DNA of 64,000 bases from Limisphaerales bacterium (GCA_044225505.1 JBGAIN010000027.1:687-64686); one strand, 5' to 3'; positions 15,358 to 57,356 are shown, counted from the stretch's first letter. Notes: generated by a model from the sequence alone, not told the origin. Translations and numbers: made by a program.

Positions 15358-16023
15358 CTACGAAATCACCGCGTTGTGGTTCGTGGTCCTACGGTCAACA
15401 CGGCGCCAGAGAGGCCCGCACAACCAGGCGAGACAAGTGCCAAGGACCAACAGATGAGCGGCAGAGAACTCGGGTATCACGACTATCAGGCCAGAACCTA
15501 AGCTGAGCATTCCATCCAAGACTTCGCCCTTGCCAGTGACGAAAATGCTCTCGGATGCGCCAAGAGTGCGGTACAGCTCCAGGGCCAGTGGATAGCTTCG
15601 ACCCACCTCGCCCGAGAGATTCCTAAGGACGACCGTGGCAAGGACGTTTCCAGAATATGCCTGAACATCGGCTGCGAAAATGTCGACCGTCCCCTTTGCG
15701 GCAGCGAAGCCGTCACCCAGAGCGATCATGGGTCCGGGGCCCTGGACGCCATTGAAAGCCAGAGGCGGAGGAATGACAACCGAGGAGGCGCTTTCCACAC
15801 GGGCCATGGCCGCATCCCAGGCGATTCTAAGACCGTAACTGAACAACCCTGCCTCAGGGACCGGGTCGATCAGAACGGTAACACGCACGTCCGCGCCAGG
15901 CACAACAGAGTAAGATGCTTCCTGGAACCGGACTCTAAAAGTGCCTTGGGCAGCCGAGTGCTGTGTTGCGAGTAACCACAACAGCGTAACGATCAGGAAC
16001 GGTCTCATTTGAAAGTGCCTCAC
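15358..16023 (-). CDS. Small secreted cohesin-like beta-sandwich protein with a PEP-CTERM-like C-terminal sorting signal
   Basis: Signal peptide MRPFLIVTLLWLLATQHSAAQG. The ATG at 16008 is the more likely start, with GAGG 9 nt upstream; GTG 16023 overlaps the giant-gene stop. The roughly 150-aa body has a cohesin-like pattern: SYSVVPGADVRVTVLIDPVPEAGLFSYGLRIAWDAAMARVES...GNVLATVVLRNLSGEVGRSYPLALEL. The C-terminus VIPEF + SAAHLLVLGTCLAWLCGPLW + RRVDRR resembles PEP-CTERM. Confidence 0.5.
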   Translation of the reverse strand: MRHFQMRPFLIVTLLWLLATQHSAAQGTFRVRFQEASYSVVPGADVRVTVLIDPVPEAGLFSYGLRIAWDAAMARVESASSVVIPPPLAFNGVQGPGPMIALGDGFAAAKGTVDIFAADVQAYSGNVLATVVLRNLSGEVGRSYPLALELYRTLGASESIFVTGKGEVLDGMLSLGSGLIVVIPEFSAAHLLVLGTCLAWLCGPLWRRVDRRTTNHNAVIS

Positions 16024-19000
16024 GGTCTTGGATTGGCGACGGTGGGCAAAACTGTCAAATAGTGCTCGCGCTGGCGGGCCAAGTCCAACGCGCCCACCAA
16101 ACCGTCGCGGTCGACATCCAAAGCCGCTTCGTAACCAGGTTCTAGCGATGTCCGGAGGTATGCTTTCTGGAAATAAAAGGTATCGAGGAAATCAACGTCG
16201 CGGTCGCCGTCTAAATCGCCGAAATATCTGAAGAACTCAAATTGCAGAGCGGAGTCCGCCGTCTCCAGACGGTTACCGGCGGCATCCGTGATCGTGTCGG
16301 TGGCCAGGATGGCCACGTAGTTGCCGTCGGCGAGCGAACCGCCCTCCAACGACGGGAAGGTGACAATGAAGATCGGCCCAGGGCCATCGGTAACCCGAAT
16401 GGACTCGGGCCTCAGGATGGCGTTGGTATCCAGATTCCGCAGCACAAAGTCTTTTCCAGACCAGCTTCCCATGACGTTTTCGGTGAATTGGAAGGTCAGA
16501 GAATCGACCATGGACCGTTGGGTGTGGCCTTGGTTGACCTGGATGGCGATTAACTTTGGCCGCACTTGATCCAAGGTGATTCCTCGCTCAACCGTCGTAG
16601 TCCCTGTGGCATTGGTGGTTTGGATCTGAATTCTGTTCAGGCCTTCCTTGAGAGTCACGTTAGAGAACATGAATTGCCCGCCGCTAGTCGTCGTGGCAAC
16701 GCCATCGTCGAACCCGTCCCCGTCCAGATCAAGGAGGACCTGTTGGTTGGGATCGCTCGTTCCCGTGAGGATGACCGGGTTTATGTTAGTGATGGAGTCA
16801 CCGACCACACCCGAGTCGCTCGCGCTGTTCAGATTGAATTCGAGCCCTGGGCCAGCGAGCACCTGAACATTCTCAATGTTCACCAAACTGGCGGCGGCGC
16901 CGAAGCCGATAAGGTCAAAGTAGAGGGCAGCCACGGTCCCCGGTGTGACACCTTTGAGATCGATTGTAACCAGCAGCGAGTGCGTTCCCGCAGGAGTGTT
17001 CCCGGAAGTCGCCACCTCGGAGGTTGTGACCATCTTGCCGAAGAATACCTTTCCAGAGGACTGTATGTTGAGCAGCGCATCTGTCCCTGTCAGTCCGTCA
17101 ATGACTCCGGCGAGCGGACGTCCGGTAGCGGCGTCGAGAAGGGCCACCTCCAACGCGTCTGGAGGAGCCCCTTCACTGCTGGTGAGGTTCAAGAGCGTCA
17201 AGGTGAACCGCAAAGTGCCGCCCTTGTCGGGAATGGTGAAGGTCTGAGCCAGTCGTGCGAGCCAGCGATCGGCTTCACGAAGCACTCCACCGTTCAGTTG
17301 CGGGAACGTGGTGACGGCGGATCCGATCCCAACGTCTCCGGTCCGCGCATCGCTGCGCTCGGAAAACCCGCTTGCGGCACGTGACGGGTCTCTGCCAATG
17401 ACCGGGGCCGTGACGCTGAACGGGCTGATATCTGATTGGGTTAAACCGGCGCGCGCGGTGCGGATGGTGGCACGAGCGGCTGAAGTGACTCGTCTAGGAT
17501 CTGAGCCCACGACTGGGGCTGGCACTTCCAAGACGATCCGTGTCGCGATCCCACTGCCCGAGGTCACAACTGGGGGCGATCCATTGCGTTTTGGATCTGA
17601 GCCAACGGCTGGGGCGTTGACAGCCGTGAGCAATCTCGGGCTGGTCGCGACGAGAGTTTTACCCACGGCTGAGAGGGATACCAGGCTCACCAGTTCCTCA
17701 AACGACGCGTTGGTCAGCATGCTGGACGAATCTGGCCCTGAGACAGTTGGTCTCTCCTCTGAGAGAGTGGTCGATAAGAGACTCACGCCTTCCGTGACAG
17801 CCCCAACCGCAAAGACAACCGTGTTGTTGTTCTCAAGGACCTCCGGCACTTCCTCCAAGCTGTCGAGCTTGACGACGTAGTAGTCTTGCTTGCTCGCGCG
17901 ATCCGTAATTATGCCAGCTGGGATTTCGAAGGTGATCGTGTGAGGTCCAGGCAGGAGATCGACGGCGTCGGAGATGCGTTTGGTGAACACCCTGGCTGTC
18001 AGAGTTGCGGCCAAGGACGATGTCGGTGAAGCGTAGAGTGCTAGTGTAAAGCTAGGGGCAGCACTGCCCACAACGACGTATCGGAGCTCGACTTTATCGC
18101 TCGCACTGGTGCTGGCAGGCGTCCAAGTGACGCTTCGAGCCACCAGGTCCATCACCGCCGTGCCGACGCCTTTACCACCGGTGGCCATGCCGGATGGCAT
18201 CCGACCCGAAGCGATTCGCCGGATCAGAATGCCGCTAAAGTAGGCCCGGTCTCTCAAGTAACTCTGGTAGATCCGGAGTTTCCAGGCATCCGTTCCCTCG
18301 GTGATTGTCTCATTGGGATGTTGCTTGTTGTAGTCCAGGATAGCGTCTTTGTACGCCTGCAGCGTCTCTGGATGATTCACCAATAACCAATCGGAGACGT
18401 TCTCATATGGGATCAACCAATAGTTCTTGCTTGATCCAGGCTGCACCTGCGACCAATCCACCTTGCCCACGCCTTGATCTTCCATGATGAGTTGCTCGAG
18501 AGGTTTGCGGTAAACGAGCATCGCGACTGTCTGATAGGCCTTATAGTCGTAACGCTTGAATTCTTCCTCGTCCTTTTCCCGAATCGACTTTGGATCTTCT
18601 CCGTCTTTTTCGACTGCTGCGCGAATCTTCGCGATGTCATAAACGAAGACTTCATTGGTGCCTTTGAAAGTCGCGAACAGATATTTTCCGGAGCTGTCAA
18701 TGATCAGCTTGTCAGGCCAGGCATAGGGAATCTCGAGGGTGGCGGCGATAAACCCTGAGGTGTCGGACGAGAGAGGATTGACAATGATGCCGATATTGCC
18801 GCCGCGGCCCCGGTTGGGATCGCGTTGCACGTCGGCTACCGAGATCGTTGTTTCCGGACTGCCCAGGTAAGGAGCCGGCTCGCTGGTCGCCTGAAATGTA
18901 TTATTGAAGAGCACGAAGGCCATTTCGTAATCGGACGTGAACACCACGGACTCGGCGGACTCGATATCGAACAGGTAGTCGTTGACCAATTGGAGGCGCG

Positions 19001-22000
19001 CCGCCCATTCCTCCGTGTCATGTGTGCCAAAAGTCTCGGGAGTATTCGGTTCAAACCCGCGGAGATTGGTGGCCTGGGTCAAGGTTGAATTGATGGCATT
19101 CGTTCGGGTATTGATCACTGTGAAGCCAGTCCTTTCAGAACCGCGAACGGCGACGACAACGTAGGGTTTCTCCACATCTTTGCTGGCCGTGACTTCGAAC
19201 GGTTTGGAACCGACCGGGATGACAGCCACCTGGGCCTGGTCCTCGAGATCATAGACAAAGACGTAACCGGGCTGGCGATCCCGGTCATCTCCGGCCCAAG
19301 AGTCCTTGCCCGGGCTGGCAATGTAGAGGTAGCGGCCGTCCGCGGTGATATCCAGTCCAGTCAGCCCAGTCAGTCCGGAGACTTTGCCGGCGACCACGTC
19401 GATGGCCTGAGCGCTGTAGGTCGTTTTGGAACTGGGCGGCCGCAAATCGAATTGGAATACTCTACCAGAAGCCCGATCAGTGGCGTAGCCAACCTGGCGG
19501 TCTGCGTCGACGATAACGTAGTAAGGCTGGCCTCCCGTGACGATGCGATCCATGGCGGTCGTCGACGGGACAAGGTCCACCTCCATCAGCGCGAGAACGC
19601 TGATAATCGAGATCGTGCCTTCGCCAGTGTTAGTCACATAAGCGAACAAGCCGTCCGGTGAAACCGCGACATGAGAGGGGTTACGGCCGACGGGAATTCT
19701 CGCCACCAAGCCGTCCGGAGAGGCGGTCCCATCGGTGTTGGCCGAAGTGATCGCGCCCGGAGCGATGACACTGACCGTGTCCTCGCCCGAGTTGACGACA
19801 AAGACATACGCCGGAGCTGGCGGGACGAAATTCACGGACTGACTGTAAAACGTGCGCGGCTCGGTCGTGTCGTTGCCGCCCGGGGAAGAAGCGCGGGTAT
19901 TGGCGTTCTTCCCCATACGAACCGTGCTATCTGTTCCGAAGCCATACAGGTCGTTCGCGGTCAGGGGCACGATGGCACTGCCATTGGCGCCATCGAGCGC
20001 GACAACTTTGATAATCCTGGAGAGGACGACCGGGGCAGCGCCGCCGGTCAGAGCATCGGGCACTAGCGCGGAGCCGTCAGACCCAAGGCGCAGCGAACTC
20101 TTGGCCCTGCCGGTCGCGAGATCCACTTCGTGAATGATGCCGCTCGCGTCGAGCACGAGGACGTTGGAGCCGTTGCATGCTGCCGCCATGGGCACAGCGA
20201 TGTTGGTGACCACTGTCCGGGTGTCTCCCGTGATCGGGTCGATGCCGATCAACAGACTGCCAGCCAGAGCCCACAGTTCGTGCTGGCGCAAGTCAAACGC
20301 GAGGCCCGGCGCAAATTCATAGCCGACGAAGCGAAGCTCCTTGCGCACGTAGGTGCCGGTCAGATCGAGTTCCGTGATGCGGCGACGATCGAAATCCAAC
20401 AAGTAAAGCGAGGTTTCGCTGGCCGCCAGCCCGTCGACATCACCCAGGCCGCCCGGGACGCTGAAGCTCGAGAGCACCTGCCCATCCGTCGGATGGAGCT
20501 GGAAGATCCGGCGCTTGCTATCAGCCGCATCAAAGTAGTAAAGGTGCTGCTCGTTGTAAGCCAAGAAGACCCTGGAGCGGCTGGTGATCGGGATTGGCGG
20601 GGAAAGCAGCTTCGAGCTGCCCTCATTGACCAGGACGAGGACCCCACGGCTCGAATCCACCGCATAGAGCACTTGACCAGTGACATCCTTCGAGGCAGGT
20701 CGGAGGATCTCGAGGAAATTGTCGCTGGCCGCCGGGGCAAAATCGGTTCCGGTAAGGCGCAGGACCGATCCGTACGGAGCCAGGATTTCGAGGGAAATGG
20801 ATTTCACCTCAGGATCCAAATCATGTTTCACAGCCGCCGGCAGCTCTACGGTGTATTCTTTGTGCTCACCTGGGGCGATCTGAATATTAAAGCGGGTGCT
20901 TTCCATCGCGGTGGGTGTCGCGCGCATGACCGTAATCACCGCACTGCTGTATGGAATCGGCACATTCGCGTCCGCCAGGAGCCCAACGGCCGTGGAGAAG
21001 CCAAACCCAGTTTCTGGATCAACCCGCAAGCGACCATCGGGCGCAGCCGATGCCGCACGCTCACCCAGACAATTCATGGTGACATACGAGCCCACCACGG
21101 AAGTGCCCAGAGCGCACGCATCATTGGTTCGCAGGTCCCAGAGGGGCGGAGACTGGGTGGTTGCGGTCCGGCCATCCGCCTGCACGACCAGTTTGTCGAC
21201 CAGATCCCATCCCGCCTCGAGCACGCCCTGAGCATTATAGAATTGGCCAGCGCGGAACAACCAGAGGACATCCCCTGGCTTGGCTCCGGCCGGTGCCGGA
21301 ACGGTCAGTGCCAAGCCGGTCGAGGCCTGCGGCGTGCCGATGTCGACTTTGAACCCGCCGGAGAAGGCAAAGCCCGTTGGCATTTGCATCGGCAAGCTGG
21401 CCTGAGCCAGCGTGGTGACCTGGACCGTGACATCGCTGCCGAGCGCGCCGGGTGGGACGCTCACGATGAAACCGTCGCTGTTGGCGACAACCCCGCCGTT
21501 GGAGCTGACGATGGTGGGACCGACGTTAGCCTGGCTGATTTGCATGGGAACCACCGCGCTTCGTCCACCGTAGACTACCGTAACCCAGAACCGGCCTGGA
21601 GCTGTGGCTGTCAGCAAGCCATTGGAAGTGATGGCGCCGAGGCTTGCACTGGATAGGTAATACTCAGCGCCTGAGGCGGCGCTCGATCGGTCCACCACTC
21701 CCCCGTCAGACAATCGTTCGCGGACAACGAACTGGCGAGTAGCGCCCACGACCATCGTATAGGCAAGCGGGTAGAACTGCAAAGTGGGATCGGCTCCGCC
21801 AGAACCGACCGAGATCGGAGTTGCCGCTGTGAGATTCCCAAACCTGACCACGATCGTGGCCGTTCCCTGGGATACCCCAAACACGAGCCCGTCGCTCCCA
21901 ACCACGGCAACTTTCGGATTATTGGAACTGAACTGAACGGCATTTTGCGGTATCGCCACAAGCGAACCATCGGGCTGTTCTCCGGCCAACTGCAGCGCAA

Positions 22001-25000
22001 AGGAGCCGCCGACTTCGATCTGGGCGTCGCGCTCCAGGATGCGCAGATTCACGAACTGGGCGGCACCAATGTTGACCGTGACTGTGGTATCGTCTGAGAA
22101 GAAGAGCCCATCGTCCGCTCGAAACGTCAGTTTGGCTGTCCCGACAAAGCCGGCATCGGGCTTGAACAGAAGGGTGTGTCCATCTCCGCCCAAAGCGATT
22201 GTGCCGTGCTCGAACGCGGACATACCATAAGCCAGCAGGTTCCCATCCAGATCTGAGCTGAGGCTGTTGAGATCGATGGTAACGACGATGTCCTCATAAC
22301 CTGGGACCGTCGCACCGACAGTCGCTGGCGCCCGGTCCGCAACGAAGCCCGTGCTGTTCTGAAGCAGTTGTCGATCTTCGACCGTCACGCGGCCATCTCG
22401 ATTGGCGTCCGCTCCTCGGTTATATCCAGCCTGTCCCTGTTGAGTGCCAAGGGATATAGCCAACGACGCTGCATCTGCCCCGGTAATAGAACGGTCCCCA
22501 TCCGCGTCGCCGGCGAGGTAGACTTCAAGGGTGTAATTCCCAGCCGCTTGAGCGTTCGCTCCAGTGACCTCAATCACGTAGGCCGCTTGAGAAGAGCTTG
22601 CAGTAAGTGGGAATAGCGCAATACCGTGACTTGCATCTGAGGTTGAGGCAGCCGGGGTCTGCCCGTCGAGAGTGACAGGCGCGGGAATGAATCCAGATAA
22701 GCCGACGATCTCGATTCCGAGCGTGACGAAGTCGGTGTTTGACGTGGCACATTCCGAGTCGCTGAGGAGGAACGCGAATCGGTCGGTTTGTCCGGCAGCA
22801 AGCGAATCATTCTTGAGCACGCCCAGGAACTGCCGTGAACTCCCGAGGAACACCTGAATCGGTTCGGAACCGAGATAGCGCCCCTGCACGTCGTAGCGGA
22901 TGAGCACGCTTGGTTCCGTGGCGGCGGTGGAGACTATGCTGGTCAGACGTGCGGAGTCGCTCTGACTATAGCCATAGAATTGACGCTGACTCGCAGCAAA
23001 ATCCGTGACGGAGGCAAGGGCGCCTGCGCTCGAGTAAGTGTAAAGAACCTGACTGCCGTCCGGAGCGGTGATGCGGCTAATACGTCCTTGAGCATCCCGT
23101 CGGAATTCGATGCGTTCACCAGTGGTGGCGATCACTCCATTTTCACTCCAAAGCAACTGTTGTCCTGAGGCGCTGACCATCCGTTGTAACCCGCCGTCGA
23201 GCAGATAATCGTAGCGGGTGCCGTCGTCCGCAGTCAGGGTCAAGTCGTAACCACCGAAGTCACTGTTTGCCATGTTGTAGGGCAGCCCACTCCCGGCCTG
23301 ATAAAAGGCACCCTGGCTCTCGACCAGCAGGGCCTCAGCGGTCGTCATCGTGTAACCGACTCCAGCGTCAGCTTGCCAGCCGGGGCGGTAAACCGTGGTG
23401 TTACCGAGTTGGGTCGCCACGGGGGCAAAGGTGAAGCCGACTCTTCGGCCGTCCGGGAGATTCACGTAGGCGCGCGTGCCCTGGAGGAAGGGGCTAAACA
23501 CGCCCCAAGCTTCGCTGCCGGTGGCACGGAGATCGGTGGCGAACTGGATATCGACAGCGCCAAGGCTCCAACCCGGCCCGAAGCTACCGGATTCACCTTC
23601 GTTCAGACTGGAGTAAAGGCGGCGGATCTGCACTTGCACTCCTCCCAAATTGGCCACGAGATCCGTGACCGCCGTTTGATACGCCGCAGGTTTGGTCGCG
23701 GAGTCGATTTCAATCACCCGAGTCAGCCGGGTAGAGCGACCGCTCATGTCGGTGGCGCTCAGCACCAACTCGTAAGCGCCGTTCGGGAGCAGACCAGGAT
23801 CCAGGTCGGCTTGAACCTCGAGCAATGCTGGATCCACCAGGCTCGTTCTGGTTGTCAGGGTCGCGGGAACCCCGCCACCCAAAGGCGCCAACCGGAGCGT
23901 CCATTCATCCAGATTGCTCTCAGCGATCCGGCCTCGGATGGTGACCGCAGCCGAGATGACGGCATGGTCCGCGAGCGAGTCGAAGGCGAGCACTGGGGCA
24001 CTCGGATCGGCACTGTCGCGCACCTTAATCGCGGTGGTCGCCCGGCCGGTATATCCATCCAGGTCGGTGGCGGTGGCGATAACTTGATACTGCCCCGGCT
24101 GAGAGGGTGTGAATCGGACCTGGCCAAGCGGATCCAGTTCCTGTCTCTGACCGTTAATCGAGAGTGAGACGGAGACAATGTCCGCGATGCCGGAAGCGGC
24201 AACCTGCACCCAGAACGTCTGGCCGATGGACGCGGGGAAGCTTGGAGTCGACTCGATCCGAACTTCGGGCAGAATCGGCTGATTTGAGACCACAAGGCGG
24301 AAGGTGCGGTAGGCGGTCCATTGGCCATCCGAGACGGTCACGCGCAGATCGTAGTTACCCAACTGCACGCCGGAGGGAGCCCAGGTCAGCAAACCACTGC
24401 TGCTATCAAACTTGGCGCCGTTCGGCAATCCGGTGATCGAGTAGCTGAGCGTTGTGCCAGCATCGGGATCCGAGCCTGTGGCCTTGAGGGTAAACGTCTG
24501 ACCAGACAATAGGAGATGGTCACTGATATAGGCGATTTCAGGAGCAAGATTGACGTTGAGCACTTCGATCTTGGTCTGATACGACGCGGCAGCGCCGGAG
24601 GGATCCTTCACGCCAAAAGTCAGGCTATGCGTGCCGGCCTGGTCATTTCCAGGAGTCCACGCGAAGTGGTTGCTTTCTGGATCAAAGGAGGCGCCAACGG
24701 GAAGGTCGCCGACCACATAAACTGCGATGGCATCGCCGTCCGGGTCACTCGCTGAGATCGTGAATGACAGGGCAGTCCCTTCCAGAGTCAACAACCCAGG
24801 CAGCGGAACGATTCGCGGCGCCTGGTTCACATTTTGCACGGTGATGGCGATCGTCTCTCTCTTGCTGCGGTTGCCATCCGAAACTTCGAAAGTGACGGGG
24901 TAAACTCCAGCCTGGCTAAGACTCGGTTGCCAAGCAAAGGAGCCGGTCGTCGAGTTGAGAGCTGCGCCGTTCGGCAGGGCAACGGCTCGGTAAGTGAGGA

Positions 25001-28000
25001 AATCTGCATCGGCGTCGGAACCCAGCACCGTGAAGGAGAGGAGTTCACCTTCTTTGACCACTCGATTGCCCAGCGGGGCCAGAGTTGGAGCGGTGTTGGC
25101 GGCCCGCACAGTCAGTTGGACCGTGGCAGAGCTCGACTTCACCTGGGTCGGCGTGCCATGCCCGTCATCTTTGACTGTGAAGGTTAACTGGCGCGATCCG
25201 ATGTCCGCAGCGGCCGGTGTCCAGCGAAACTCGGCGATCCCATAAACGCCGGTCGGCGCAAAGGTTGCCCCGGCCGGAAGACCCGTCGCACTGAAACTCA
25301 ACGGATCGAAATCCAGGTCGGACGCACTGACTTGGAAGACCAGTTCCTGGCCGATCACCGCCAGTCTGCCGCCAGTGAAGTCCAACTGAGGCGGTGCGTT
25401 CGGCAACACGACGGCCAGCACAAATGTGCCCTCCCCGGCGAGCGCGGCGGCCGGGTTGCCGTTGCCGTTGTCAGTCGCAGAAATCGTCACTGTGTAGTTG
25501 CCCCGCTCCAGCGGGCCTGGGGTTGCTCGGATCGTGGCGGTTCCGTTGCCGTTATCCCTGAAAGTCGCGAAGGCAGGCAGTCCGGAAGCGGCCAGGGTTG
25601 GGACGGTCCCGTTGGGGTCGGTGGCCGCCACCGTGAACTCGAGCACTTCGCCAGCGTTGACCCTCTGATTGGTAATCGCGGCGACCGCGGGCGGTCCGTT
25701 GTCGTCTCTCACCTCGATGAGAACCGTGGTTATGGCGCTCGTGGAAGTGCCTGTGCCATCGCCGTCGTCCTGGGCGGTGAACTTGATTTCGTAGACCCCC
25801 GCCTGGGTGTACGCGGGCGTCCAGGTTAGGAGCTGGGTTTCGCCGTCGAACACCGCCCCGTTGGGCAAGGCGCTGTAGGTCCAAGTAAGATCCGGCATCA
25901 CCAACCCAGCTTCGAGCAGATCGTCGATCGGGAGGTGCTCAATTCCGGTTGGGTGGTCCAGATCTTCGGCCGCAATCCGAATTGAGAGTGTCTGTCCCTC
26001 ATAGACCGCAAACCGTCCGGGTTCGGCGAACCGGACCGGTCCATTGACATTTAAGACATTGATCTTGAGCGATTGCCCGGTCTCAAACTGGCCATCCGAC
26101 ACGCTGAACTTCACCAGATACTCCCCGTGCTGATCGTAGCCGGGAGCCCAGGTGAACACACCGGTATCCGGCGTTAGGACAGCCCCGGGTGGCAAGTTGG
26201 GAGAAGAGTAACGGACTGTAGTGCCGTCGGGATCGATAGCGCCAAGCGTGAGAGTGAGAGTATCGGCTTCGCGGATCGTTTGATCGACCAGAAGAGGAAC
26301 AGTCGGCGGCTGGTTCACGTTCAGGACCAGCAGTTCGAAGGTGCGAGAGACCACGTTGATGCCATCACTGACAAACACCTCCACGTTGGAATAGCGCCCT
26401 GCGGAAGTCGCATCGGTCTGCCATCGCAAGACATGATTACGGCTGTCGAAGACAGCACCGGGAGGCAGATGGTTGGCCCCGAACACGAGATTGTTGGCCT
26501 CGGGGTCATAGCCACTCGCATAGATCTCGAGAGCCTCGCCCTCATGGATAACGCGATCCAGGATCGGTAACAGCACCGGCGGGGCATTGGCTCCGGCAAC
26601 CTGCACAGTCCATTTTTGCGGCGTGTAACCGCCACGGCTATCATAGGCTCGCAGTTCGAAGGTGACGCTGGTGCCATCATTCACTTTGGGCGTCCAGGTA
26701 AGTTGGCCGGTGGTCGAACTCACGGATGTCCCAGGCGGACCGTCGACGAGCAAGTACGACACGGAAACACCATCCGGATCGGCGGCCAGCGGAACATAGG
26801 CATAGGGTTGGTTAACGGTTGCGGCCGTCAACGGAGACGAACTGAACACCGGCCGTTGATTACCGGGCACCTGCGCGACCACCTGCGCTTCGAGATTCAG
26901 CCTGCCGTCGCCGGGGTTCTGGATGGTGATTGGGTGGGTGACCGACTGACCCGGCGAAAGCAGGGTGAGAGCCGAGCTGGAAAGTTCGATGTAGGGATGC
27001 CCCTGGGGAGTAATCCCCGCGGCCCTCAACAGCGTCGGCAGACCAGCGTCGCTGTTACCTCCTGTTACCGTCAAACCGTTGAACACAACGCGAATCGGCG
27101 CCAACACCGGCAGCGACGTGCTGTTGGTGATGGTCAGATCGAAGGAGAGAGTGTTATCCGCCCGGGTGAGGCGCGTGTTAGCAAACTGAGGCTTAAGGTC
27201 AGTGGTGACGTCCTGGAGGACAACGAACTGAGTTGCATATGGCTGGGCCAGGGCAATCCCCAAGCCACTCTTCACGGTTGCCGCGACGGCCAGTTCGTAT
27301 TCATCCGGCAGGAGTCCTTCAAACAGAAGGTAAACCGTGTGGGTTGCAGTGTCGTAATTTGCCGACGAGATCGAGATCGTCTTGCCCGTATTCAGGTCTT
27401 TGAGCGAATACTGGGTCAAGTTGGTCGCTGAGGCCGAGGTGGTGTCGTGGAGCATCTCCGTGTTGAAGGTGATGCTGGCGCGAGTGACGACTGGGGTGAC
27501 ACTGGAATCGGCGACGGGCGAGGTGGCAACGATCTTCGGTGGAAACACGGGGAAGAAAACGTCCACCTGGTTACTCTGTGTGACGAAGAGCTGACCATTG
27601 GGACCAACATGCAAGAAGTCCCCGCGCGTGCCGCCTGCAGCTAATCTGACGGTCTCCATGGAGGCGAGATCGACCAGGGTGAGAGCGCCACCGGTGGCAT
27701 GACTGATGAAAAGCAGACCTTCAAGCGGTGTCCCACTCTGCCCGAAAGCCAGGCATTCCGCCTCCGAATCCAACCTCAGCATGACTTCGGCTTTGTGGAC
27801 GCGGTTGAAACGGACGACCACTCCGTCTCTAGGCCAAGTGGTGGCCCAAAGCGAGCCGTCAGGCGCGAAGGCGAGGCCGTCCACACGAGTGTCGGAGAAC
27901 CTGGTAAATTGGTGACTGACGGGGTCGAAGATTTCGATGCCGTTCCGAGTGGAAACATAAAGGTCACCCGTCTTTGGCTCCACGGCCAGGCCGAGCTGGA

Positions 28001-31000
28001 TGCCATCGCCATACCGGGCGATGATCTGACCAGTCTGGGGATCAAGCTGCACGAGCGGGCCACCACCTGTCGTCGCCCACAGCATCCCAGCTCCATCGAA
28101 GGCAAGGTCGTAGATGGGTAGTTCAAGCATTGCCAGAGGAGCAACGGCATCTCCTCCGGCCATGTCGAATACGTAGAGACTCTTACGCCCGGCTCCCCCG
28201 CTAATGAAGACCGACTGTCCATCAGGGGTAAAGGCGATGCCGAGCGGGCCGATATCAGCGCCCGAGGTGGGAACCTTGCGCGCAAAGCTGCGGGCGGTGA
28301 ATGGCTCAAAGACAGCGGTGAAGGAAGAAGGATACTGGCGGGATTGGGTGCTGGGGATTTGCAGCAACGCCTGTGTGAAGAGCGGGTTAGTGACCGGAGT
28401 GCTCGGTGGCTCGATCTCGGAAAGTTCTGTGGCAGTCGTTTCCGGAGCCACCGGAATTCCGCCCAGGTTCACGTCTGGCGCAAAGGCGGGCAATAACACG
28501 CCGACGGGCTGGGTCTCGCGATTGCCTGCATGATCAATGGCCAGGACGATGAACTCGACGGCTGAGCTTTCCACGCCTTCGTAGAGGGCGGATGTTTCTG
28601 TCGTATGCGATTTCCAGGTCGTGAAGGCCCCGCCATCCACTGAAACGTAGACCATGAAGTCCTTGAGCCCGGAGCCCAGAGAATCTTCCACGGCTTTCCA
28701 GTTCAACGCATACGAGCCTCTACTCAGAGCCTGGACGTGCACTGTGGTTGTCGGTCCCGAGGCGTCGAGCGTGTGGCGAACGACATTGGTATCGATGGGA
28801 GCCTGGTCGTCGAAGAGGACTCGCGCGCTGGCCGTGATTTCAGCTCCGGTGGCAGAGTCGGGGTTTGCCCGAATGATGTAGCTCACCATGCCCCCCTGGG
28901 TAAGGTCTACGTTGGGGAACAGAAGACCCAGATCGGGATCGGCGGCAGGCAAGCCAGTAAGAGGATCCACGGCCGTGAGCTGCCAGGTAACGGTATTGGT
29001 CAACACATCGATCCCCGCCGTGACCTGGAGGACAATTCCGTAGTCATCGGTCAGATCGAACTCACCGGTAAAAGCAGCGCGGTTGCCCGGGAAGTGAATC
29101 ACCAGATCGCCCAGGCGTAGGTCGCCCAAGCGGAATGAACGGACATCCAGGTCGGCGTCCAACTGCTGCAAGATCCGGATTTGAGAGATCGGAGCAGTCG
29201 CGGAGGCGGGATTCTCGAAACTAATGGCGTAGGGCAAGTCGGTGTTGGCAGGCACAAAGAGACTGGCTCCGTAGCCGTTGGGTCCGTTCATCGAAACACT
29301 GTCGCTGCGCGCGCCGAAGAGACCAAAGAACTGGCCCAGATTCGGGTTCTGTACTGCGGCCGGGGAATCGGCCTCCGGTTCGCCCACTTGGATGACGTAC
29401 GAAACATAGTGAGTCGGATGCGAGAGGTGGAGGTCGAAGGTGGAGGCGGCTGGCGGCGTTGAACTCCCGTAGGCTTCCTCATCGTGGCCATACCAGGCTC
29501 GCACCTGTTCAAAGAACTGGACGAGGTTGCCACCGGCAATGATTTCCTGACCACCCGAGCCGCCCAACAAGCCCGCCGCCAGGACAGAAACCAGGCTCGC
29601 GAATGCGGGCTGTTCCCGGATCGCAGGTGGCTCGTCTTCGGGGCGTAGCAACCCAGCATCGGTCAGGGCCGCGAGATAAAGATCACCCCAGGTCTGCTTG
29701 TCAGCCGCCAGCGCCAGCAAACCTTGAGGAGCATTCGGGTCTGCAAGAATCCTTTCCCGCAATGCCGTTGCCTGGTCACGCTGGTAAGCGACGTACTCAA
29801 GTGCGGTCATGGGAGTCGCAGCAGCTTGGATGTAGAACTCAAAAGCCAGGTCAGAAAGGAAGATGGTACCTTCGAGATTCTTGAGGTAATCGGGATCTTC
29901 GGCCAACAAGCGACGCAGTTCAGGATAGGTGTCAGCAGTGAAGGTCAAGGCCGCATACCCGTCGTTGATGAAGTCGTAGGTGAACCCGGAGGCCACCAAG
30001 TCTCCCTTCAGATTCACAACCGGGTCAAGTTCGATCCAGGGAACGTCCCCGATATTCGGGCTTCCGCTCAAGTTGGTCCGAAAGACCAAGCGCTCGCCCG
30101 GGATAATGCCGGTGGAATCGGAGGGTAACCTGGGCATGCCAAACTCCACATGAACATAGGGGGCATCGACGTTGGTCAGGCTGTGGATGCCGATTCCATA
30201 CCAGCCGACCTCGCCCAATTCCAAATGGGCGGGGCCGCCCAGCCCGACGGTCAAATCCAGCGGCAAGGCTTTCTCGACAAGGTACCGGTAGGGCAACACC
30301 GCCGTTTGCCCGTTGGGGTTTGTGACCTGGATGTCGTAGAGGCCGTGCGCCGCATCGCGCAGATCGAAAACGGCGGTAATCTCCGTGGCAGAGACTCGCT
30401 TATAGTTGATTGGAGCGAACTCGGCGATCTGCGGCCGAACCAGCTTAACGGTAGCCGATTCATCGAACTTGGCACCTGTGACCGTCAAGGTGACATAACG
30501 GCTGTCGCCGCCGACATCCGAGGTCACGTCACTGATCTCGAACGGAACGAGTCGCGCCTTGAGCTGGATGCCCGCCTTCCCAGGGACGCTGGCGCCCCGC
30601 ACCAGGATGTAATAGTAGCCCGCGTTGGTGCTGGGCACGCAAGCTGTTTGGTCCGCCCACAGATGGCCCTCGTAAGCGGCGTCATAGGCCAACGAACTCG
30701 GCAAGCCTTCGTAACGCAGGAAAAGCTCATTCGCGGCGGCATCATTGTCACAAGCCAGAACCACCTCCAGCGTTTCACGAGCCGGGACAGCGACGCGGTA
30801 GAGCAGTTCCTGGCCAGTCGAAATCGAGCTGCTGGCCACGACGTCCACGGTCAGCGCGCGCACTCCGACCTCCATCACTCCTGAGGAAGCACGAGCATTG
30901 TTGCCGTTAAACGTACCCTCGTTAATGTCATCATAGACATCGGTTCGGACGATCAGTCGGTACGTATTGGGCAACACCGTGGGCAGGGCAGCGGTAAGCG

Positions 31001-34000
31001 TTGCCGTGTAGCTTTCACCCGAGGCGAGCACCTGGATGTGCTTGGCATCGCCGCGCTCCAGTTTGCCAACCAGACGGTCCCCCACGTCCCATACGCCGTC
31101 GAGAGACAGGTAAAGGGCGTCGGCCCAGAATCCCTCAGCCTTTTCCGTGCTATGGTTCTTCACGGTCCAGAGGATCTGGACGGATTCGCCAGCCAGCCCC
31201 GTGCTCGGCATAACAACGGGGTCCTCCACCTGCAGATCCGTCGGCGGTGGCAGTTCGATCAGCATGGGTAAGGCGCTGGGGGTGGCGTTGTTCGTCTCTT
31301 TGCTCCCTTCATACACGCTGGTATACCCCGCCCCGGAAGCGGTGTCGGTCAGCACGAACACGTAGTAAGGGCCAACAAGCCCACGCGGCAGGGTGTATTC
31401 GTCAGTGACCGTATACGACTCTCCGGGCTTCAAAACCCCGATATGTCCGACGCCTTTCACGAAGTGATCACTGGCGGCATCCAAGTACTGGTCGCGAGAA
31501 AGGTATATGTCATCGTACCAAGCGTTCTGCCGGTCTGGGACTTGCCCCTGGCCCGTGTTGGTCACGACGTAGGTAACCGTGAAGCCATGACTGCTCAGAA
31601 TCCGCTCTGGAGCTTGCACCTGGGTCACTTTGAGGTCCGGCAACGGTTGCAGCGCGATCTGGACGGCGGAAACGACGGTATTGTTGCCTTCGTTCTGGTA
31701 CTCGTTCACGGCGCCTGAACCTCCTCCCAGGATGCGAGCCGGGCCGTCCGCCAGCGGATAGGGAACTTGCCCTGGAGACCATTCAGTGTGTGGTGAATCG
31801 GCGCAGACGATGAGATAGAACGGTCCTTGGATATCGTCCGGCAACCGGACCGTGGTGGTCGCCGTGTACTCGCCGCCCATTTCGACTACTCCATCATGCC
31901 GCACGCCACCGAGCAGCAGGTCATAGACATCCAGGGATTTGTCCTGCGAAATGAAGACGCGGTCAAACCAGACTCCGGTGCGCGTAGCGCGCGTGCCCTG
32001 GTTCGCAACTTTCCAGGACAGAGCGATGTCGCTGCCAGAGAGCGCTTGGTCGCTGTCCGCCATCGGCAGGATGACAAGGTCCGGTTCGCGGAAGAGAATA
32101 TTGATAGGCGTCGAACCGCCGCTATTATTCGCGTTGGCGCCATCCTCCCAAACGCGCTGTTTAAAGTTCGTCCTCCAGCTGGGGTAGGAGCCAGGGCTCA
32201 AAGCACGATAATCCACCGGACGAGGCGCCCATTCGGACGGATTGTGATCCGTCAGGACATAGATATATCGCTTGCCCGAGACGCCGCTCGGGAGTTGAAC
32301 GGTAGCGGCGGCCGTATAACTCTGCCCGGGCTGGAGTGGTTGGTCGGCCGTGTGGACAACGCGGGTCAGGAACAGGGCGCGGCCAACTTCAAACGGCCGG
32401 TCCGGTGGATCCGGCGACAGGAAGATGTTGTCAAACCAGCGTGTCGTCCCTTCCCACACCGCACCGGGACCTTGGTTGGTGACCGTCCAGGAGATCTGGA
32501 TGACCCCGTCCGAGTCGGCTTCCCCTGGCACCTGGCTAACGACGGCCACCAAGTCGGCAGGAAGGTTACTCACGGTGCTCGCGGCAGCCTTTTCATTGTT
32601 TTGGGTCCACGGTCCCTCGAAGACCAACTGCTCACCTTGTCCGGTCGGGGAGCCAACGATGATGTACATTAGCTGGTCCTTGCTCAAACGGGAGATGTCC
32701 TCGGAAGAGACCTGGTCCAGGGACTCGCCAATGGTCTCTTCCAAGCGCGACATGACTCCCTCAAATTGCTGGGTTAGCTCCTGCATCGCTTTCTGGTCGT
32801 AGTCCTCCTCTTCGACGACCTCGATCGGGGCGACGTTGGTTTTAACGATGAAGAACTTTCCTTCGGCTGACGGCGGCAGCGTGAAGGTGACGGTTTGCGT
32901 ATAGGACTCGCCAACTTGAAGGGTTCCTTCGTGAGGAGCAGCGAAGACCAGCAAATCTTTTCCGAGATCGAGCTGATCATCATCGGACAGATAGATCGAG
33001 TCTCCCCAGCGATCAACGCCGGTCGCCACGGCGCCGCGGTTCGCTACGGTCCAGGCAAGCGTGACTTGCTGTCCGCCCAGGGCAGAGGCGGGAGCGATGA
33101 CCGAGGTGACTTCCAAATCGGCAGGTGGAGTCACGAAGAGGTTAATCGGGGTGAACGCGAAGTTGCTACCCTCGATGTCCGTGGGCATCGCCGGATTAAC
33201 GTTGACGTCAAATGCCTGTTCAAAAACGTTGTCGGGGGCATCGGTCCAAACCGCCAGGTAATAGACACCTTGCAGGCTCTTGGGAATTGTCACGGTAACC
33301 GCGTTGTCATACGACTCACCCACCTCGAGTGCGCCGCTGTGCCCGAAGGTCCCGAGTAGGATATCGCCGCTCAACGGGTTAAACGCGTTCGGTTTTGGAC
33401 GGCCTTTGGCACGCACGAGCCAGATGGCATCGGCCCAACCTGCCGGATAGGTTATCCCGGACCCGTTGTTCTTAATCCGGTATCGAACGGTGATCTGAGA
33501 ACCGTCAAAGGCATCGAGCGGAGCCGAGATTTCCGAAGCCACAAAGTCGGGAGGCGGCACGGGTGTAACGTCGACGGCCAGAGGTTGCGCCTTCTCGTTG
33601 TTGCCGTCGTTGGGGAACTCATCAACCACGCCCTCGGAATCAGCCTTGACGATAATGTAAACGTTCCCGCTGACTCCCAGGTCGACCTGATAATGGCCCT
33701 CACTGCTATACGCCTGGCCCGAGGCCAAGGCCGCGCCGTTTGCCAGGGATCCGAGCAACCGATCGCCCGTGTCCCACTTGTGGTCCAGCGAGAGGTAAAC
33801 GCCATCAATCCAGCGCGAGCCGCCCGTAGGCGTAGACGCAGCTCCAAGGTTGTAGACCGTCCACTGGACATCGATATATCCGCCGCTGGTGATTTTGGCC
33901 GGCACGGTCAAAGCCGTCACCTGCAGGTCCGGTCGAGGCTTAAGGGAAAGGACCAACGTGTCAGAAGCGGCCAGAACATTGTTGGTCTCAACCGTCTCGG

Positions 34001-37000
34001 GCAAGCTATCGGCCACGTCGGTCTCAACCACAAGGGTGTAGACACCTTGAGCGGCTGGGAGCTTCACGAATTCGCTGCGGGCATAGCTCTGGCCGGCCTC
34101 AAGTCCGATGGAACGTGAGTAGTCGCCCAACACAATCGCCCTCTCCAGATCTCCACCAGGAGCAAAGAAAACCCGGTCCGTCCAGTAGCCAGTAGCGTTC
34201 TGCGGCCCGTTATTCTTGACCGTCCAGGTGACTTCGATCCGGGCACTGTCCTGGGCCTGCGATGGACCGCTCACCTGGGTGACCTGGAGATCCACCGGCG
34301 GCGGAGGCGTGTAAGTCACGTTCACGGCCTGGGAGCGTCCGGTGTTGTTGTCGGTATAAACAAACTCGAACGGACCGCCTGTGGTGACAAAAACGTAATA
34401 GGTTCCGTTGGCATCAGTCGGCAACGTGACCTCAGCGGTGCGAGGATAGCCGTCGTCGACGCGGAGTGCGCCCAGGTGGCTGAACGTGCCTAAGGTCACC
34501 CGACCTGTTGCGCCGGTGGGATCTTTCGACCACCACACCTGGTCCGACCAATTGTCCGGGGTGGTAATCCCGATGCCGAGGTTGGATACGGTCCAACTGA
34601 CGGCGAGCGGTTTCCCATTCTGGCCGGTTGACCCTGCGGTCACTTGATCCACCACGAGATCCGCGTAGGGGATGTACATGACATCCACCGTGTGCCCCCC
34701 AACCGCGATGTTCGCGCCTTGGCCAGTGTGCTCGTAGACCACATCGGCCGCATCCGTCATGACCAATAAATAAAAACGCCCCTGGAGGCGGGAAGGAAGG
34801 GTGACTATCTTGGTTTCAGTGTAACTCAGGTGGACCGGTAAGAGACCGATGTGCTGGAAATTGCCCACCAACTGATCATCGCCATTTCCGTAGACCTGGT
34901 CCGTGGAGAGCACAACTCGATCCGTCCAACTGTCCACAGGGCCAGGGCCCGTGCCGTCGTTCGTAACCGTCCAGGAGACCGTCAAGTCGACCGGATCCCC
35001 GATGAGCACGGATGGGGCGGTCACGCCGCTGACCCGCAAATCGGCATAGGGAGCGAGTGTCACCTCGATCACAGGCGAGGCGCCAAGATTGTTGTCCTCT
35101 TTGACGCCTTCCGCAACTTGATCTGCGGCATCTGTCCGAACGAGCAGATAATAGGAACCAGCCAAGCCGTTAGGAACCGTCACCTCGAGTTGAGCGTTAT
35201 AGGTCCCACCGGACGGCAAGATCCCCGAATGAAGTTCTTCTCCGAGCAACAGATCAGCGGTGGACAAGGTTTGGTCGCTGGAAAGGAAAACTCGGTCAGT
35301 CCACTCGGCAGCGGTCGCGAAGGTGCCAATATTGTGACCAATCCAGGTTGCCATGAACTTGGCGCCAGACACCGCCGCGGAAGGAGCCGTCACGCTGTCA
35401 ACGACCAAGTCTGCGTGTGTGATGGCCAAGGGCTGTGTATTTGCCAAGGTGTTGTTGCTTTCCCCGTCCCATTCCGTGACGTTGCCATCGGCATCCGTGA
35501 CCACGATAAAGTAGTAATTCCCGGCAGACACTGTCGGCACCTGGACATTCTCAGTCCGAGTGTCCTGGGCGTCCCTGGAGAGTTCGGTTGCCCGGACGAA
35601 GCTCGCCACCAGGGTCGCAGCGTTCATAGTGCCATCTACGGAAAGATAGATCCGATCGACCCACGGAGCGGGAGCAGAAGCCGCACCGTTGTTCCCGATG
35701 GTCCAGGTAAGCGGGATAGCCGCTCCGATGCTCGCGGTGGCCGGCGCGGTGATATTGCTAATGACGAGATCGGCCACCATCACGACACTGAGGTTCTGGG
35801 AAATGCCGGTGTTGTTCATCTCCCCCTCGCGTTCAAAGACCGAATTCGCAACGTCGGTCACCACTTGCACAGTGTAGCGTTTGAAGGGCAACGACGGCAC
35901 AACCAAGGTTTCCGTTCGACGATAGCTCGCGTCGGAGACCAAGTCGCCTGAGTGCGTGAAGACTCCCAACTCGACGGCTGAAAAGCGATTGTCGTCGGGC
36001 CAGAGGATTACTTGGTCCTTCCAGGAACCGGCGGCGACAGCGGTGCCGCTGTTGGTGACGGTCCAGGATACGGCGATTGGGGAGCCCACCGGCAATTCCG
36101 CAGGCGCGGTCACTTGCGAGACGATCAAGTCAGGCACTGGGGAGACCGAGACGACCATCGCGGAGGCGCTCCGTCCCACATTATTGCCTTCGGCGGTCAG
36201 CTCCTCGACCTGGTTGCCGACGTCCGTCTGGACGAAGACGAAGTAACTCCCGGCCGTGAGACTCACAGGTAGCGTGATCGTTTGGGTTTGAGTCACCACC
36301 GCTTCGGCGGCGAGGGCTCCGGTGTGTTTAAAGGTCCCGAGCTCGATATCGCTACCGAACTGGTCGTCTGCCGAGAGATAAATCCGATCGGACCACTCCG
36401 CCACGGACGTGCTGTTGGCACCCTGGTTTTTAACGTCCCAGGAGATCTGCACAATGGCCCCGGTGGCAGCAGAGCCCGGAGCGGTCACGGTGACAACCGC
36501 AAGATCGCTCGGTGGTGGGGCAACGGCCACCTGGATGGTAGACGCCAGCAGGTTATCAGCCTCGTCCTGTTCCAGAACGGAGTCGCGACCGTCTAATTTG
36601 ATGTAGACGCGGAACTGGCCTTCGATGCCGTAGGGAACCACCGCACTGAACTCGCGGCTGTAACTTGCGTTGACGGCAAGATCGCTCTCCACAGTAGTTG
36701 CGCCCAAGGCAATGTCGTCACTGTTCCCGAAGACCTCGTCCTTGGAGAGCACGGCTACGTCACTCCACGAAGCTTTGGCTGAGGCCCCGCCGGAGTTCAC
36801 AGCGGTCCATTGGATCGTGAGTGTCTGCCCGTTCGCGGTGGAGGAAGGGACCTGGGAGGATTTGAACCTCAGGTTTGCCAGCTTAAGCTCAAGATTTAAT
36901 CCAAACACGTCGCCCGTCTCGCCCAAAATGCCATTGTCATTCTGATCCATGGGATTGCCGACCAGATCGGTGATGTTCGGACCGATGACAAAGCGATAGC

Positions 37001-44300: not shown

Positions 44301-44794
44301 TCAATCTTGACCCGGGTAAGTTTCGGGGAATCGGAGCTAATTCGAATTCCGATCCAATCCGAGTTTCGAACGGTCACATCAATGAGGCTGATACTGCTGC
44401 TGATCGCGATGGCAACCTGATAGCCTCCACCGTGACCCGGATGATAGATATTCCCGGCATATCGAACCTCCACATTCTGCATCACGGAAAGGCCAGCCCC
44501 CGCGCCGAAAACCAAGCCTCTCCAATCTCCGGCTGCCACAGTCGCGGTGCCCTCGCCTGAAACATCTTCCCCAATGGAGTCATCGCGTGAAGCGGTAAAA
44601 ACAATTGGAGTCGCAGTTGTGCCTCGCGCATCTAAAACACCGTTCACCAACATCTGCGCGCCGCGATCAAATTTGAGAACTGCTCCCGCGCTAATCGTCA
44701 ACCGGACACCGGCGTCAATAGTTAGATCCCCGGTAATGTGGATTGTGCCAGCCCAGGTGGCGTCGCTGGAGATCGTGCCGTTGACAGTCGTAGC
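39720..44794 (-). repeat. Eight tandem ~190-220-aa modules (parallel beta-helix-like) spanning the frame break, capped by a PbH1/CASH-like beta-helix
   Basis: Conserved blocks per module: LTI.PG.V.K...I.V.GTL.A.GT...PIVFTS.RDD..GGD.N.NG....GDW.G...N.GSDASV......(V/I)RYAGN.Y.(P/H)GHG(G/Q)GY. The RY(A/G)GN Arg lies at fused residues 315, 512, 732, 922, 1121, 1320, 1525 and 1725. One anchor was checked: the R315 codon is at 44462-44464. Confidence 0.75.
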
Positions 44795-48516: not shown

Positions 48517-48585
48517 AGATGCCAGCTCCCATTTCCGTTGGTTTTCCGATGCGACTGCGACCCACCATCCCGTTTGCATCGGTGG

Positions 48586-56936: not shown

Positions 56937-57017
56937 TCCTTAATTTTGAGACTTTTCAGGTATGGGTAAGCCATAGGAACCAAGCGCTCTAACTCCGTCA
57001 ACGTCGGCCCCGGCGAC

Positions 57018-57356
57018 TCACGCGATTTCGGGATTCAGAAATCGGGCCAGAATGGCGGTGGCTTGTTTCCAGTCTCGAGTCTCCTTCTCGATCTGTTTGC
57101 GCCCAGCTCGGGTGAGTTGGTAGTACTTCGCCTTCCGATTGTTGTCCGAAAGGCCCCACTCGGAACGGATGTATCCCTCTTGTTCCAACTTGAGCAGCGC
57201 CGGGTAGAGGGTGCCGTAATTCACAGACAACAGATCAGCGCTCGTCTGTTCGATCTGGCGCGCTATTCCGTAGCCATGTAAGGACCCGGTCCGCTCGAGA
57301 GTTTTAAGAATCATCAACGCCAGAGTTCCCTGCCACACGTCGGTTTTGCTGCCCAT
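57018..57356 (-). CDS. PadR-family transcriptional regulator (the type paired with ADOP permeases)
   Basis: 112 aa. GTLALMILKTLERTGSLHGYGIARQIEQTSADLLSVNYGTLYPALLKLEQEGYIRSEW...KYYQLTRAGRKQ is a winged-helix PadR signature. Confidence 0.85.
   Translation of the reverse strand: MGSKTDVWQGTLALMILKTLERTGSLHGYGIARQIEQTSADLLSVNYGTLYPALLKLEQEGYIRSEWGLSDNNRKAKYYQLTRAGRKQIEKETRDWKQATAILARFLNPEIA

Follow-up and report, generated by a model that had tools for sequence, protein, structure and literature searches.

A candidate cohesin-dockerin tether for a giant adhesin-like protein of a Limisphaerales bacterium

We analysed a 64,000-nt stretch of DNA from a Limisphaerales bacterium (GCA_044225505.1 JBGAIN010000027.1:687-64686; hereafter the window, in whose positions all coordinates are given), in which a gene for a giant adhesin-like protein and, directly behind it, a small gene both lie on the minus strand. 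We found that the giant protein ends in a dockerin and that the small protein combines a signal peptide, a predicted cohesin fold and a C-terminal PEP-CTERM-like tail. We propose, with a probability of about 0.55, that the small protein is a dedicated cohesin anchor that tethers the giant protein through its dockerin. A preliminary description of the stretch had likewise read the small protein as a surface anchor for the giant, an interpretation that is supported in all the parts that could be checked. The features (ORF, open reading frame; AF2, AlphaFold2) that carry the argument are as follows.

15358..16008, minus strand: small gene, 216 aa from ATG 16008, stop at 15360-15358
15361..15480, minus strand: PEP-CTERM-like tail, V-I-P-E-F followed by a hydrophobic helix of ~20 residues, RRVDRR and 9 residues
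15475..15945, minus strand: predicted cohesin-fold beta-sandwich of nine strands, residues ~22-178 (~155 aa), from AF2 and Foldseek
15949..16008, minus strand: signal peptide up to the MRPFLIVTLLWLLATQHSAA-QG boundary, residues 1-20, read from the sequence
16018..16021, minus strand: GAGG, Shine-Dalgarno-like motif, with ATG 16008 9 nt on, overlapping the TGA of the giant gene (16022-16020)
16020..41354, minus strand: main ORF of the giant gene, 8444 aa, stop TGA at 16022-16020
16023..16223, minus strand: C-terminal dockerin, residues ~8378-8444, the last ~67 of the 8444-aa ORF
16239..16571, minus strand: Ig-like (Big_5-like, 'QRSMV') module directly before the C-terminal dockerin, weak Big_5 match
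22356..22514, minus strand: internal dockerin, residues ~6281-6333, Pfam Dockerin_1
41096..45406, minus strand: N-terminal ORF of the giant gene, 1436 aa, beta-helix repeats
45338..45385, minus strand: N-terminal motif FQLEALESRLLLSAEA of the giant, matching F.LE.LEPR.LLS(A/G), which is conserved in the giants of relatives

The C-terminal module of the giant is, judged from its sequence, a genuine Dockerin_1 domain and a member of PF00404. The last 326 aa, scanned alone, score 29.2 bits, above the gathering cut-off of 22.9, and both calcium loops are readable, in agreement with the canonical duplicated dockerin that had been described at this end of the protein. A type I dockerin is laid out as a duplicated segment of ~22 residues, in which a 12-residue EF-hand-like calcium loop (D or N at positions 1, 3, 5, 9 and 12) is followed by a helix. 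The window sequence (...RYFGDLDGDRDVDFLDTFYFQKAY...LDVDRDGLVGALDLARQ...) contains two such 12-residue loop/helix segments, the loops DLDGDRDVDFLD and DVDRDGLVGALD being spaced ~35 residues apart and position 6 of loop 1 being R, where G is usual. The loop Asp and Gly are invariant across six related dockerins (alignment A4). Identity between the internal and the C-terminal dockerin is as low as 26%. Both stretches fall within the C-terminal half of the giant, and together they score 39.6 bits for Dockerin_1.

The small protein opens with a signal peptide that forms the N-terminal helix of its AF2 model, and the mature QGTF start is conserved among homologues. A first AF2 model, made from 9 sequences, had a mean predicted local distance difference test score (pLDDT) of 71.7, while a second, made from an 81-sequence alignment (A3) after an exhaustive profile search, reached a pLDDT of 93.5 and a predicted template modelling score (pTM) of 0.81, with a nine-strand sandwich, cohesins being beta-jelly-rolls of nine strands and about 140-150 residues. 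When the second model was compared with the PDB using Foldseek, cohesins of types I, II and III accounted for each of the best 50 matches (E 8.7e-10 to 1e-5; template modelling score normalised to the target, TMt, 0.6-0.79; root-mean-square deviation 3.2-4.2 Å over ~155-180 columns). Cohesin-dockerin complexes are the source of many of these structures, as are anchoring proteins such as OlpA, OlpC, ScaE and ScaC. The 46 best PDB matches of the first, shallower model were likewise cohesins only. According to the model, the small protein has a single cohesin module and no carbohydrate-binding module (CBM).

Sequence comparison is far less sensitive to this resemblance. The Pfam Cohesin model (PF00963) matches 5 of the 81 aligned family members, with a best E value of 0.015, and stays below its cut-off on the window copy. 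Searches of PDB sequences with family profiles gave E values of 0.1-0.7, with three of the six best matches being cohesins aligned over the same N-terminal strands, and neither an NCBIfam scan nor a phmmer search of the PDB with the small protein returned a match. The cohesin-like beta-sandwich of the preliminary description is thus upheld by structure comparison and missed by the curated sequence model; without the fold search, the sub-threshold scores would have wrongly refuted the cohesin idea. We consider the predicted cohesin fold to be as firmly established as prediction permits and, since the fold is that of a cohesin but the Pfam threshold is not reached, the protein is best called a member of a divergent cohesin-like family.

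This family is large. A word-indexed search returned only 9 relatives of the small protein, whereas an exhaustive search with a hidden Markov model (HMM) found at least 541 representatives at 50% identity (E <= 1e-3), with 335 at E <= 1e-10 and 106 at E <= 1e-30. Most members are 190-270 aa long and match end to end; in a minority, of 350-1,800 aa, the domain stands at the N-terminus and Big_7, He_PIG or beta-helix domains are also present. All members with a named source are from Verrucomicrobiota, where they are annotated as hypothetical or Ig-like, and no Pfam or NCBIfam model covers the protein body of the family, curated NCBIfam PEP-CTERM models matching the tails only. The most conserved motifs (GLFSYG, FNG..GPGA, KGTVD and L.LE.(Y/F)RTLGP.E..FV.G.G..LD) sit on strands 4, 6 and 8 and on the long loop between strands 8 and 9. 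On the window, the family HMM scores 242.8 bits at the small gene, and neither this HMM nor tblastn found a second copy or remnant of the gene, including upstream of the N-terminus of the giant. As a separate observation, five giants of 2,513-7,677 aa (P0102, P0117, P0164, P0168 and P0180) match profile positions ~21-52 only, 16-34 times each; the repeat corresponds to the first strands (F.V.FD...Y.V.PG..V.V.V), so that a short repeat similar to the start of the cohesin-like domain is reiterated in other giants.

The tail of the small protein reads VVIPEF-SAAHLLVLGTCLAWLCGPLW-RRVDRR-TTNHNAVIS, while the family consensus is ...VVPEP-x-(hydrophobic ~18)-RR. Alignment A3 shows no variation at P179 and E180 and has P181 in at least 90% of the sequences, the window copy having F181. 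PF07589 matches 37 of the 81 family members (best E 1.6e-7), and one member, P0005, exceeds the TIGR02595 cut-off (19.9 versus 16). The closest relatives of the window copy, P0002-P0004, also have degenerate and extended tails. From these sequence features, the tail is a true PEP-CTERM signal at the level of the family, of which the window carries a degenerate copy; the PEP-CTERM-like tail of the preliminary description therefore holds for the family and lacks an HMM match in the window itself. No other PEP-CTERM tail was found in the window.

The two genes are closely linked. On the coding strand the junction reads ...CCA AGA CCG TGA GGCACTTTCAA ATG AGA CCG..., with an intergenic gap of 11 nt between the TGA of the giant gene and ATG 16008; the start at this ATG with its GAGG was correctly described, the gap having been given as 12 nt. 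ATG 16008 is the likely start because all homologues begin at its equivalent ('MR...') and the Shine-Dalgarno spacing fits. GTG 16023, which overlaps the stop of the giant gene, was considered as an alternative start and rejected, as both the Shine-Dalgarno spacing and the N-termini of the homologues favour ATG 16008. No promoter-like site was found between the two genes, and the sole terminator-like match upstream of the small gene is weak and lies inside the coding sequence of the giant, such matches occurring at background frequency. With this arrangement, the giant and the small gene are almost certainly co-transcribed and probably translationally coupled.

Next we examined the gene neighbourhood of the family in relatives, whose loci were seen with 10-kb flanks and dereplicated to 15 independent loci. 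A very large surface-protein gene adjoins the family member in 15 of the 15, confirming the expectation of a conserved pair of small and giant genes. Where it is visible, the large gene of the relatives is colinear with the giant of the window (35-39% identity over 3,300 aa in L002, and likewise in L001 and L013). At ten loci the small gene lies 0-430 nt directly upstream of a gene encoding the F.LE.LEPR.LLS(A/G) start (L001/L007, L008, L009, L010, L012, L013/L014, L018/L019, L020/L021, L022/L023 and L002-L006, the last assigned by colinearity, not by the motif). Among the loci with small members, the order of giant followed by small gene is found in the window only. As a side observation, genes of the resistance-nodulation-division (RND) type for membrane fusion and a SecA-like gene (678 aa) precede the cohesin-like/giant pair at L022 (263-7139).

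Two further loci bring the cohesin-like domain close to a dockerin. At L015/L016, two metagenome contigs of the Joint Genome Institute (JGI), the C-terminus of a protein that measures at least 3,303 aa is made up of the same Ig-like 'QRS' module as in the window, a dockerin (HRLFGDVDGDTDVDAMD...DIDTDGDVDAAD; 18.2 bits for Dockerin_1) and a tail of ~90 aa. The gene directly downstream encodes a 1,834-aa protein composed of a signal peptide, an N-terminal family domain (31% identity, E 9e-16) and beta-helix/PATR repeats. L011 comes from a Verrucomicrobiota metagenome-assembled genome; its family member, of 386 aa, lacks PEP-CTERM, and the genes behind it encode first a 443-aa protein and then a dockerin protein consisting of a signal peptide, a Big_5-like module, the dockerin (FIRYFGDADGDRDVDFID...; 21 bits) and Ig domains. 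The dockerins near the cohesin-like genes of L011 and L015 share the subtype RYFGDxDGDRDVDFxD with the C-terminal dockerin of the window. Accordingly, in three independent lineages (the window, L011 and L015/L016) a cohesin-fold gene lies at most two genes from a dockerin of this subtype (alignment A4). These neighbours are the sole evidence, and an indirect one, for the proposed binding of dockerin by the cohesin-fold domain. That the small gene abuts the dockerin end of a large gene, as first described, is true of the window and of L015/L016, while in the ten relatives above it lies upstream of the giant. The intervening 443-aa protein of L011 (4058-5389) has a signal-peptide-like N-terminus, a C-terminus ending in ...LGLSLSF and no Pfam match; by these features it might be an outer-membrane beta-barrel serving as the membrane anchor of the variant that lacks PEP-CTERM.

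Taken together, the dockerin, the fold match and the adjacency to giants exceed what is expected by chance, because the dockerin scores above a curated threshold, the fold match reaches E ~1e-9 with cohesins alone among the top matches, and a giant gene is adjacent in 15 of 15 loci.

We then considered how widely the dockerin itself is used. The Ig-like module and the dockerin travel as a single C-terminal cassette, which is carried by 85 database proteins and is also present at L011, L015, L024 and L026. Its bearers include unrelated proteins, for example sulfatases and PKD proteins; the cassette is thus widespread on other proteins, and the cohesin could therefore have clients beyond the giant. 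With the last 206 aa of the giant as query, only fragments of up to 361 aa and no giant were returned, and the last 1200 aa gave nothing at E <= 1e-10 among 8000 candidates. On L026 (10001-11677), a Planctomycetes-like long-read contig with PSD/PSCyt neighbours, a frameshifted giant ends in a Big_5-like module and a RYFGDHDGDRDVD dockerin; ~110 nt downstream lies the gene of a 182-aa PEP-CTERM protein (FTAIPEPSS...FRRQR), which is outside the cohesin-like family by HMM and could be an analogous dockerin partner.

In the mechanism that we propose, the small protein would be exported by the Sec pathway by means of its signal peptide, and its PEP-CTERM tail would hold it at the envelope, either through exosortase processing or as a plain transmembrane (TM) helix. 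Processing by an exosortase is suggested by the family signal and by what is established for TIGR02595 systems. The cohesin face, expected to be the 8-3-6-5 sheet, would then bind a dockerin of the giant in a calcium-dependent manner, most likely the C-terminal one of the RYFGDxDGDRDVD type, and the giant adhesin-like protein would, as a result, be tethered to the cell surface. Such a tether would correspond, in a Gram-negative cell and with an exosortase-type signal, to the single-cohesin scaffoldins by which Firmicutes anchor proteins, ScaE with its sortase anchor and OlpA/OlpC with their SLH anchors.

Several observations weigh against this proposal. In the ten relatives the small gene is found beside the N-terminus of the giant and not beside a dockerin, the visible flanks stopping before the C-termini of the giants. 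Downstream of two Big_7-containing members, P0149 (L017) and P0137, lie He_PIG/RHS giants, of 2,276 and 4,786 aa, respectively, that show no visible dockerin. A fused dockerin is also absent from ten larger family members (348-894 aa), which have Ig-like Big_7, He_PIG and Big_9 domains, and on the five contigs retrieved through the cassette (L024, L025, L026, L027 and L028) no member of the small-protein family follows the dockerin gene. Furthermore, the Pfam Cohesin model gives the small protein 12.8 bits (E 0.14, residues 36-76) against a cut-off of 24.1. The window tail has PEF for PEP and extends 9 residues past the basic cluster, with no PEP-CTERM HMM match in Pfam and NCBIfam scans, and there is no exosortase gene among the genes of the window.

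The gene order of the ten loci, with the small gene immediately before a motif-bearing giant N-terminus, would be explained if the cohesin-fold protein served the giant without a dockerin, through the N-terminal F.LE.LEPR.LLSA motif or another module, as an export, folding or anchoring factor in the periplasm or envelope. The two family members next to RHS/He_PIG giants without a visible dockerin fit this explanation, as would an uncleaved tail acting as a plain inner-membrane anchor, which would leave the domain in the periplasm. The fold, however, is specifically that of a cohesin, for which dockerin binding is the sole known function, and the L011 neighbour has an ordinary signal peptide and no LEPR motif, yet bears a dockerin. 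In both the window and L015/L016 it is the dockerin end of the large gene that the cohesin gene adjoins, and the order of genes in an operon is hardly informative on which ends of their products touch. We consider this explanation unlikely, although it is the most credible of the alternatives. It is less probable still that the small protein serves many dockerin proteins of the cell as a general cohesin at its surface, with the adjacency reflecting co-regulation only. Such a role would suit the Big_5-like and RYFGDxDGDRDVD dockerin cassette found on many unrelated proteins (the 85 matches above) and the large excess of dockerins over recognised cohesins outside cellulosomes, as Peer et al. 2009 is cited for it in PMC9012536 and PMC5244752; on the other hand, the tight pairing with giants in 15 of 15 loci points to a specific relationship, and the giant is the only dockerin-bearing gene in the window.

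We regard as the least probable the explanation that there is no cohesin-dockerin contact at all, the dockerins being structural calcium-binding modules and the small protein a co-located PEP-CTERM beta-sandwich associated with exopolysaccharide (EPS), for example a carbohydrate-binding one. What dockerins and cohesins do outside cellulosomes is generally unknown (PMC5244752), the Pfam Cohesin score is below threshold, and some CBMs share a beta-jelly-roll fold, all of which would be compatible with mere co-location. However, the top 50 structural matches contain cohesins and no CBMs, and chance would not be expected to produce the conserved adjacency to giants (15 of 15 loci) and the repeated dockerin neighbours. 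We favour the reading of the small protein as a dedicated anchor for the giant.

Anchoring by a single cohesin is known from cellulosome-producing bacteria. ScaE of Ruminococcus flavefaciens consists of a signal peptide, one cohesin and an LPXTG motif by which it is anchored by sortase, its ligands being the XDoc of ScaB and that of the adhesin CttA; OlpA and OlpC of Clostridium thermocellum have one cohesin and an S-layer homology (SLH) anchor. All three are among the structural matches of the small protein (ScaE, 2zf9; OlpA, 3ul4; OlpC, 4dh2), with which it shares the layout of a signal peptide, one predicted cohesin and a putative C-terminal envelope-anchoring signal, as well as the proposed role as a tether of a dockerin protein. 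The nearest functional parallel is ScaE, which holds the non-enzymatic adhesin CttA. Unlike these scaffoldins, the small protein belongs to a Gram-negative verrucomicrobial host and has a putative signal of the PEP-CTERM/exosortase type in place of LPXTG/sortase or SLH, and its proposed cargo is one adhesin-like protein of ~9,800 aa, not enzymes or a scaffoldin.

Outside the cellulosome, cohesin and dockerin modules have been catalogued (Peer et al. 2009, as cited in PMC9012536 and PMC5244752), and their function is described in the literature as unknown (PMC5244752, PMC9012536). In the 'planctosome' hypothesis for freshwater Planctomycetes, the anchor is a 2,210-aa cohesin protein with an LTD domain and the cargo consists of peptidases (PMC6461901), and anaerobic methanotrophic (ANME) archaea have cohesin and dockerin proteins (PMC9012536, PMC5244752). 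Like the present pair, these are cases of non-cellulolytic extracellular proteins for which assembly or anchoring by cohesin and dockerin has been proposed from genomics only; unlike it, their domains are recognisable by Pfam or InterPro, and none has a PEP-CTERM cohesin or a giant adhesin. The giant 'dockerin-type' proteins of Omnitrophota have C-terminal TM anchors of their own, SecA-like domains and many dockerin/TSP3 repeats (bioRxiv 10.1101/2023.11.21.568195). They resemble the giant of the window in being extracellular, adhesion-type, dockerin-bearing, non-cellulolytic proteins of bacteria related to the Planctomycetes-Verrucomicrobia-Chlamydiae (PVC) group and differ from the window pair in having no reported separate cohesin partner; the SecA-like neighbour at L022 recalls the SecA-related domains reported beside or within them. 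The PEP motif, TM helix and basic cluster of the family are those of the PEP-CTERM/exosortase system (TIGR02595, PF07589; Haft et al. 2006), for which a cohesin-fold passenger is not described in the literature searched. In that literature no paper joins cohesin, dockerin and PEP-CTERM, and an exosortase and a cohesin domain occur together only in a domain census of ANME archaea. The suggestion that the pairing is unprecedented thus applies to a PEP-CTERM cohesin with a giant adhesin, but not to the concept, in view of the non-cellulosomal systems (PMC6461901, PMC9012536) and of the known single-cohesin scaffoldins. What is known is the principle of cohesin-dockerin anchoring; what is new is an unannotated cohesin-fold family of Verrucomicrobiota, its anchor signal of the exosortase type and the giant adhesin that would be its cargo.

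These results bear on how Gram-negative PVC bacteria retain proteins of 5,000-13,000 residues and on what non-cellulosomal dockerins bind, for which they offer a concrete candidate pair, whose members, a cohesin-fold domain of 155 residues and a dockerin of 67, are encoded 11 nt from each other. The family that existing HMMs miss (at least 541 clusters at 50% identity) could enter the domain databases. If the binding is true, cohesin-dockerin anchoring would extend to the exosortase/PEP-CTERM system, the poorly understood PEP-CTERM proteins would gain a defined passenger function, and the pair would be useful in protein engineering as an orthogonal cohesin-dockerin pair of high affinity. As a tentative extension, which we think possible but hold to be doubtful, the family of at least 541 clusters may supply the 'missing' cohesins for the orphan dockerins of Verrucomicrobiota, perhaps across the PVC group, with PEP-CTERM/exosortase as the Gram-negative counterpart of the sortase and SLH anchors of scaffoldins and as the standard means of keeping adhesins of at least 10,000 aa at the outer surface.

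The giant gene is not a single ORF in the window. The N-terminal ORF (41096..45406) overlaps the start of the main ORF (16020..41354) in a different frame, and the frame changes at about 41368-41437, within the beta-helix repeat region. The size of ~9,800 aa that had been assigned to one giant ORF is reached only if the 1436-aa and 8444-aa ORFs are joined, and the two lie in two frames. In the homologues of L002 and L013 the frame is uninterrupted across the position of the break in the window, and the L002 homologue is called as a single gene of 13,009 aa. The L001 homologue is also broken (960 aa and 1305 aa), at another position than in the window, and that of L013/L014 is broken elsewhere too, with the same break in both samples. 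The giant of ~9,800 aa is accordingly the product of one gene cut by a frameshift, which may be genuine or a sequencing error; the cause could be an error of sequencing or assembly in the repeats, genuine pseudogenisation or a programmed event.

In the main ORF, Pfam recognises nine CARDB, seven He_PIG and seven Big_9 domains and, furthermore, Cadherin_5, Laminin_G_3, PA14, Big_5, an RHS repeat and two Dockerin_1 domains. The N-terminus of the giant protein reads MSVSQTNFQLEALESRLLLSAEA. In the giants of the window, L001, L008-L010, L012-L014 and L018-L023, the motif F.LE.LEPR.LLS(A/G) opens the protein in place of a classical signal peptide, and may act at the N-terminus of PVC giant proteins as a so far uncharacterised signal for export or recognition.

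The remainder of the window contains enzymes and a cluster of genes upstream of the giant gene, among which are the following.

12840-13949: glycoside hydrolase family 5 (GH5) gene, without dockerin
45936-47684: FG-GAP/ASPIC protein, upstream of the giant gene
47728-49392, minus strand: two N_methyl/DUF1559 prepilin-like proteins, upstream of the giant gene
49389-50747, minus strand: FecR and PA14/GLEYA anti-sigma-like protein, upstream of the giant gene
50744-51304, minus strand: extracytoplasmic function (ECF) sigma factor, upstream of the giant gene
52416-53960, minus strand: second sigma-70-like protein, 514 aa, upstream of the giant gene

In full, the flanking genes encode an aldehyde dehydrogenase, an amine oxidase, a MerR/B12 regulator, a DUF4832 protein, an astacin, the GH5, two PQQ-like propellers, the FG-GAP/ASPIC protein, the two N_methyl/DUF1559 prepilin-like proteins, the ECF sigma/FecR/PA14 genes and MacB/FtsX. 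Scans of the GH5 and the other flanking enzymes of the window found no dockerin, the giant alone carrying dockerins (two), which agrees with the earlier statement that the locus is not a cellulosome. A cellulosome was considered and rejected, there being no dockerin-bearing enzymes and no multi-cohesin scaffoldin with a CBM. The sigma, anti-sigma, prepilin-like and FG-GAP/ASPIC genes upstream may serve in the regulation or the secretion of the giant. Towards the end of the window, a region of ~7 kb (56936-64000) has few long ORFs, the largest being of 153-200 aa at 58330-61944.

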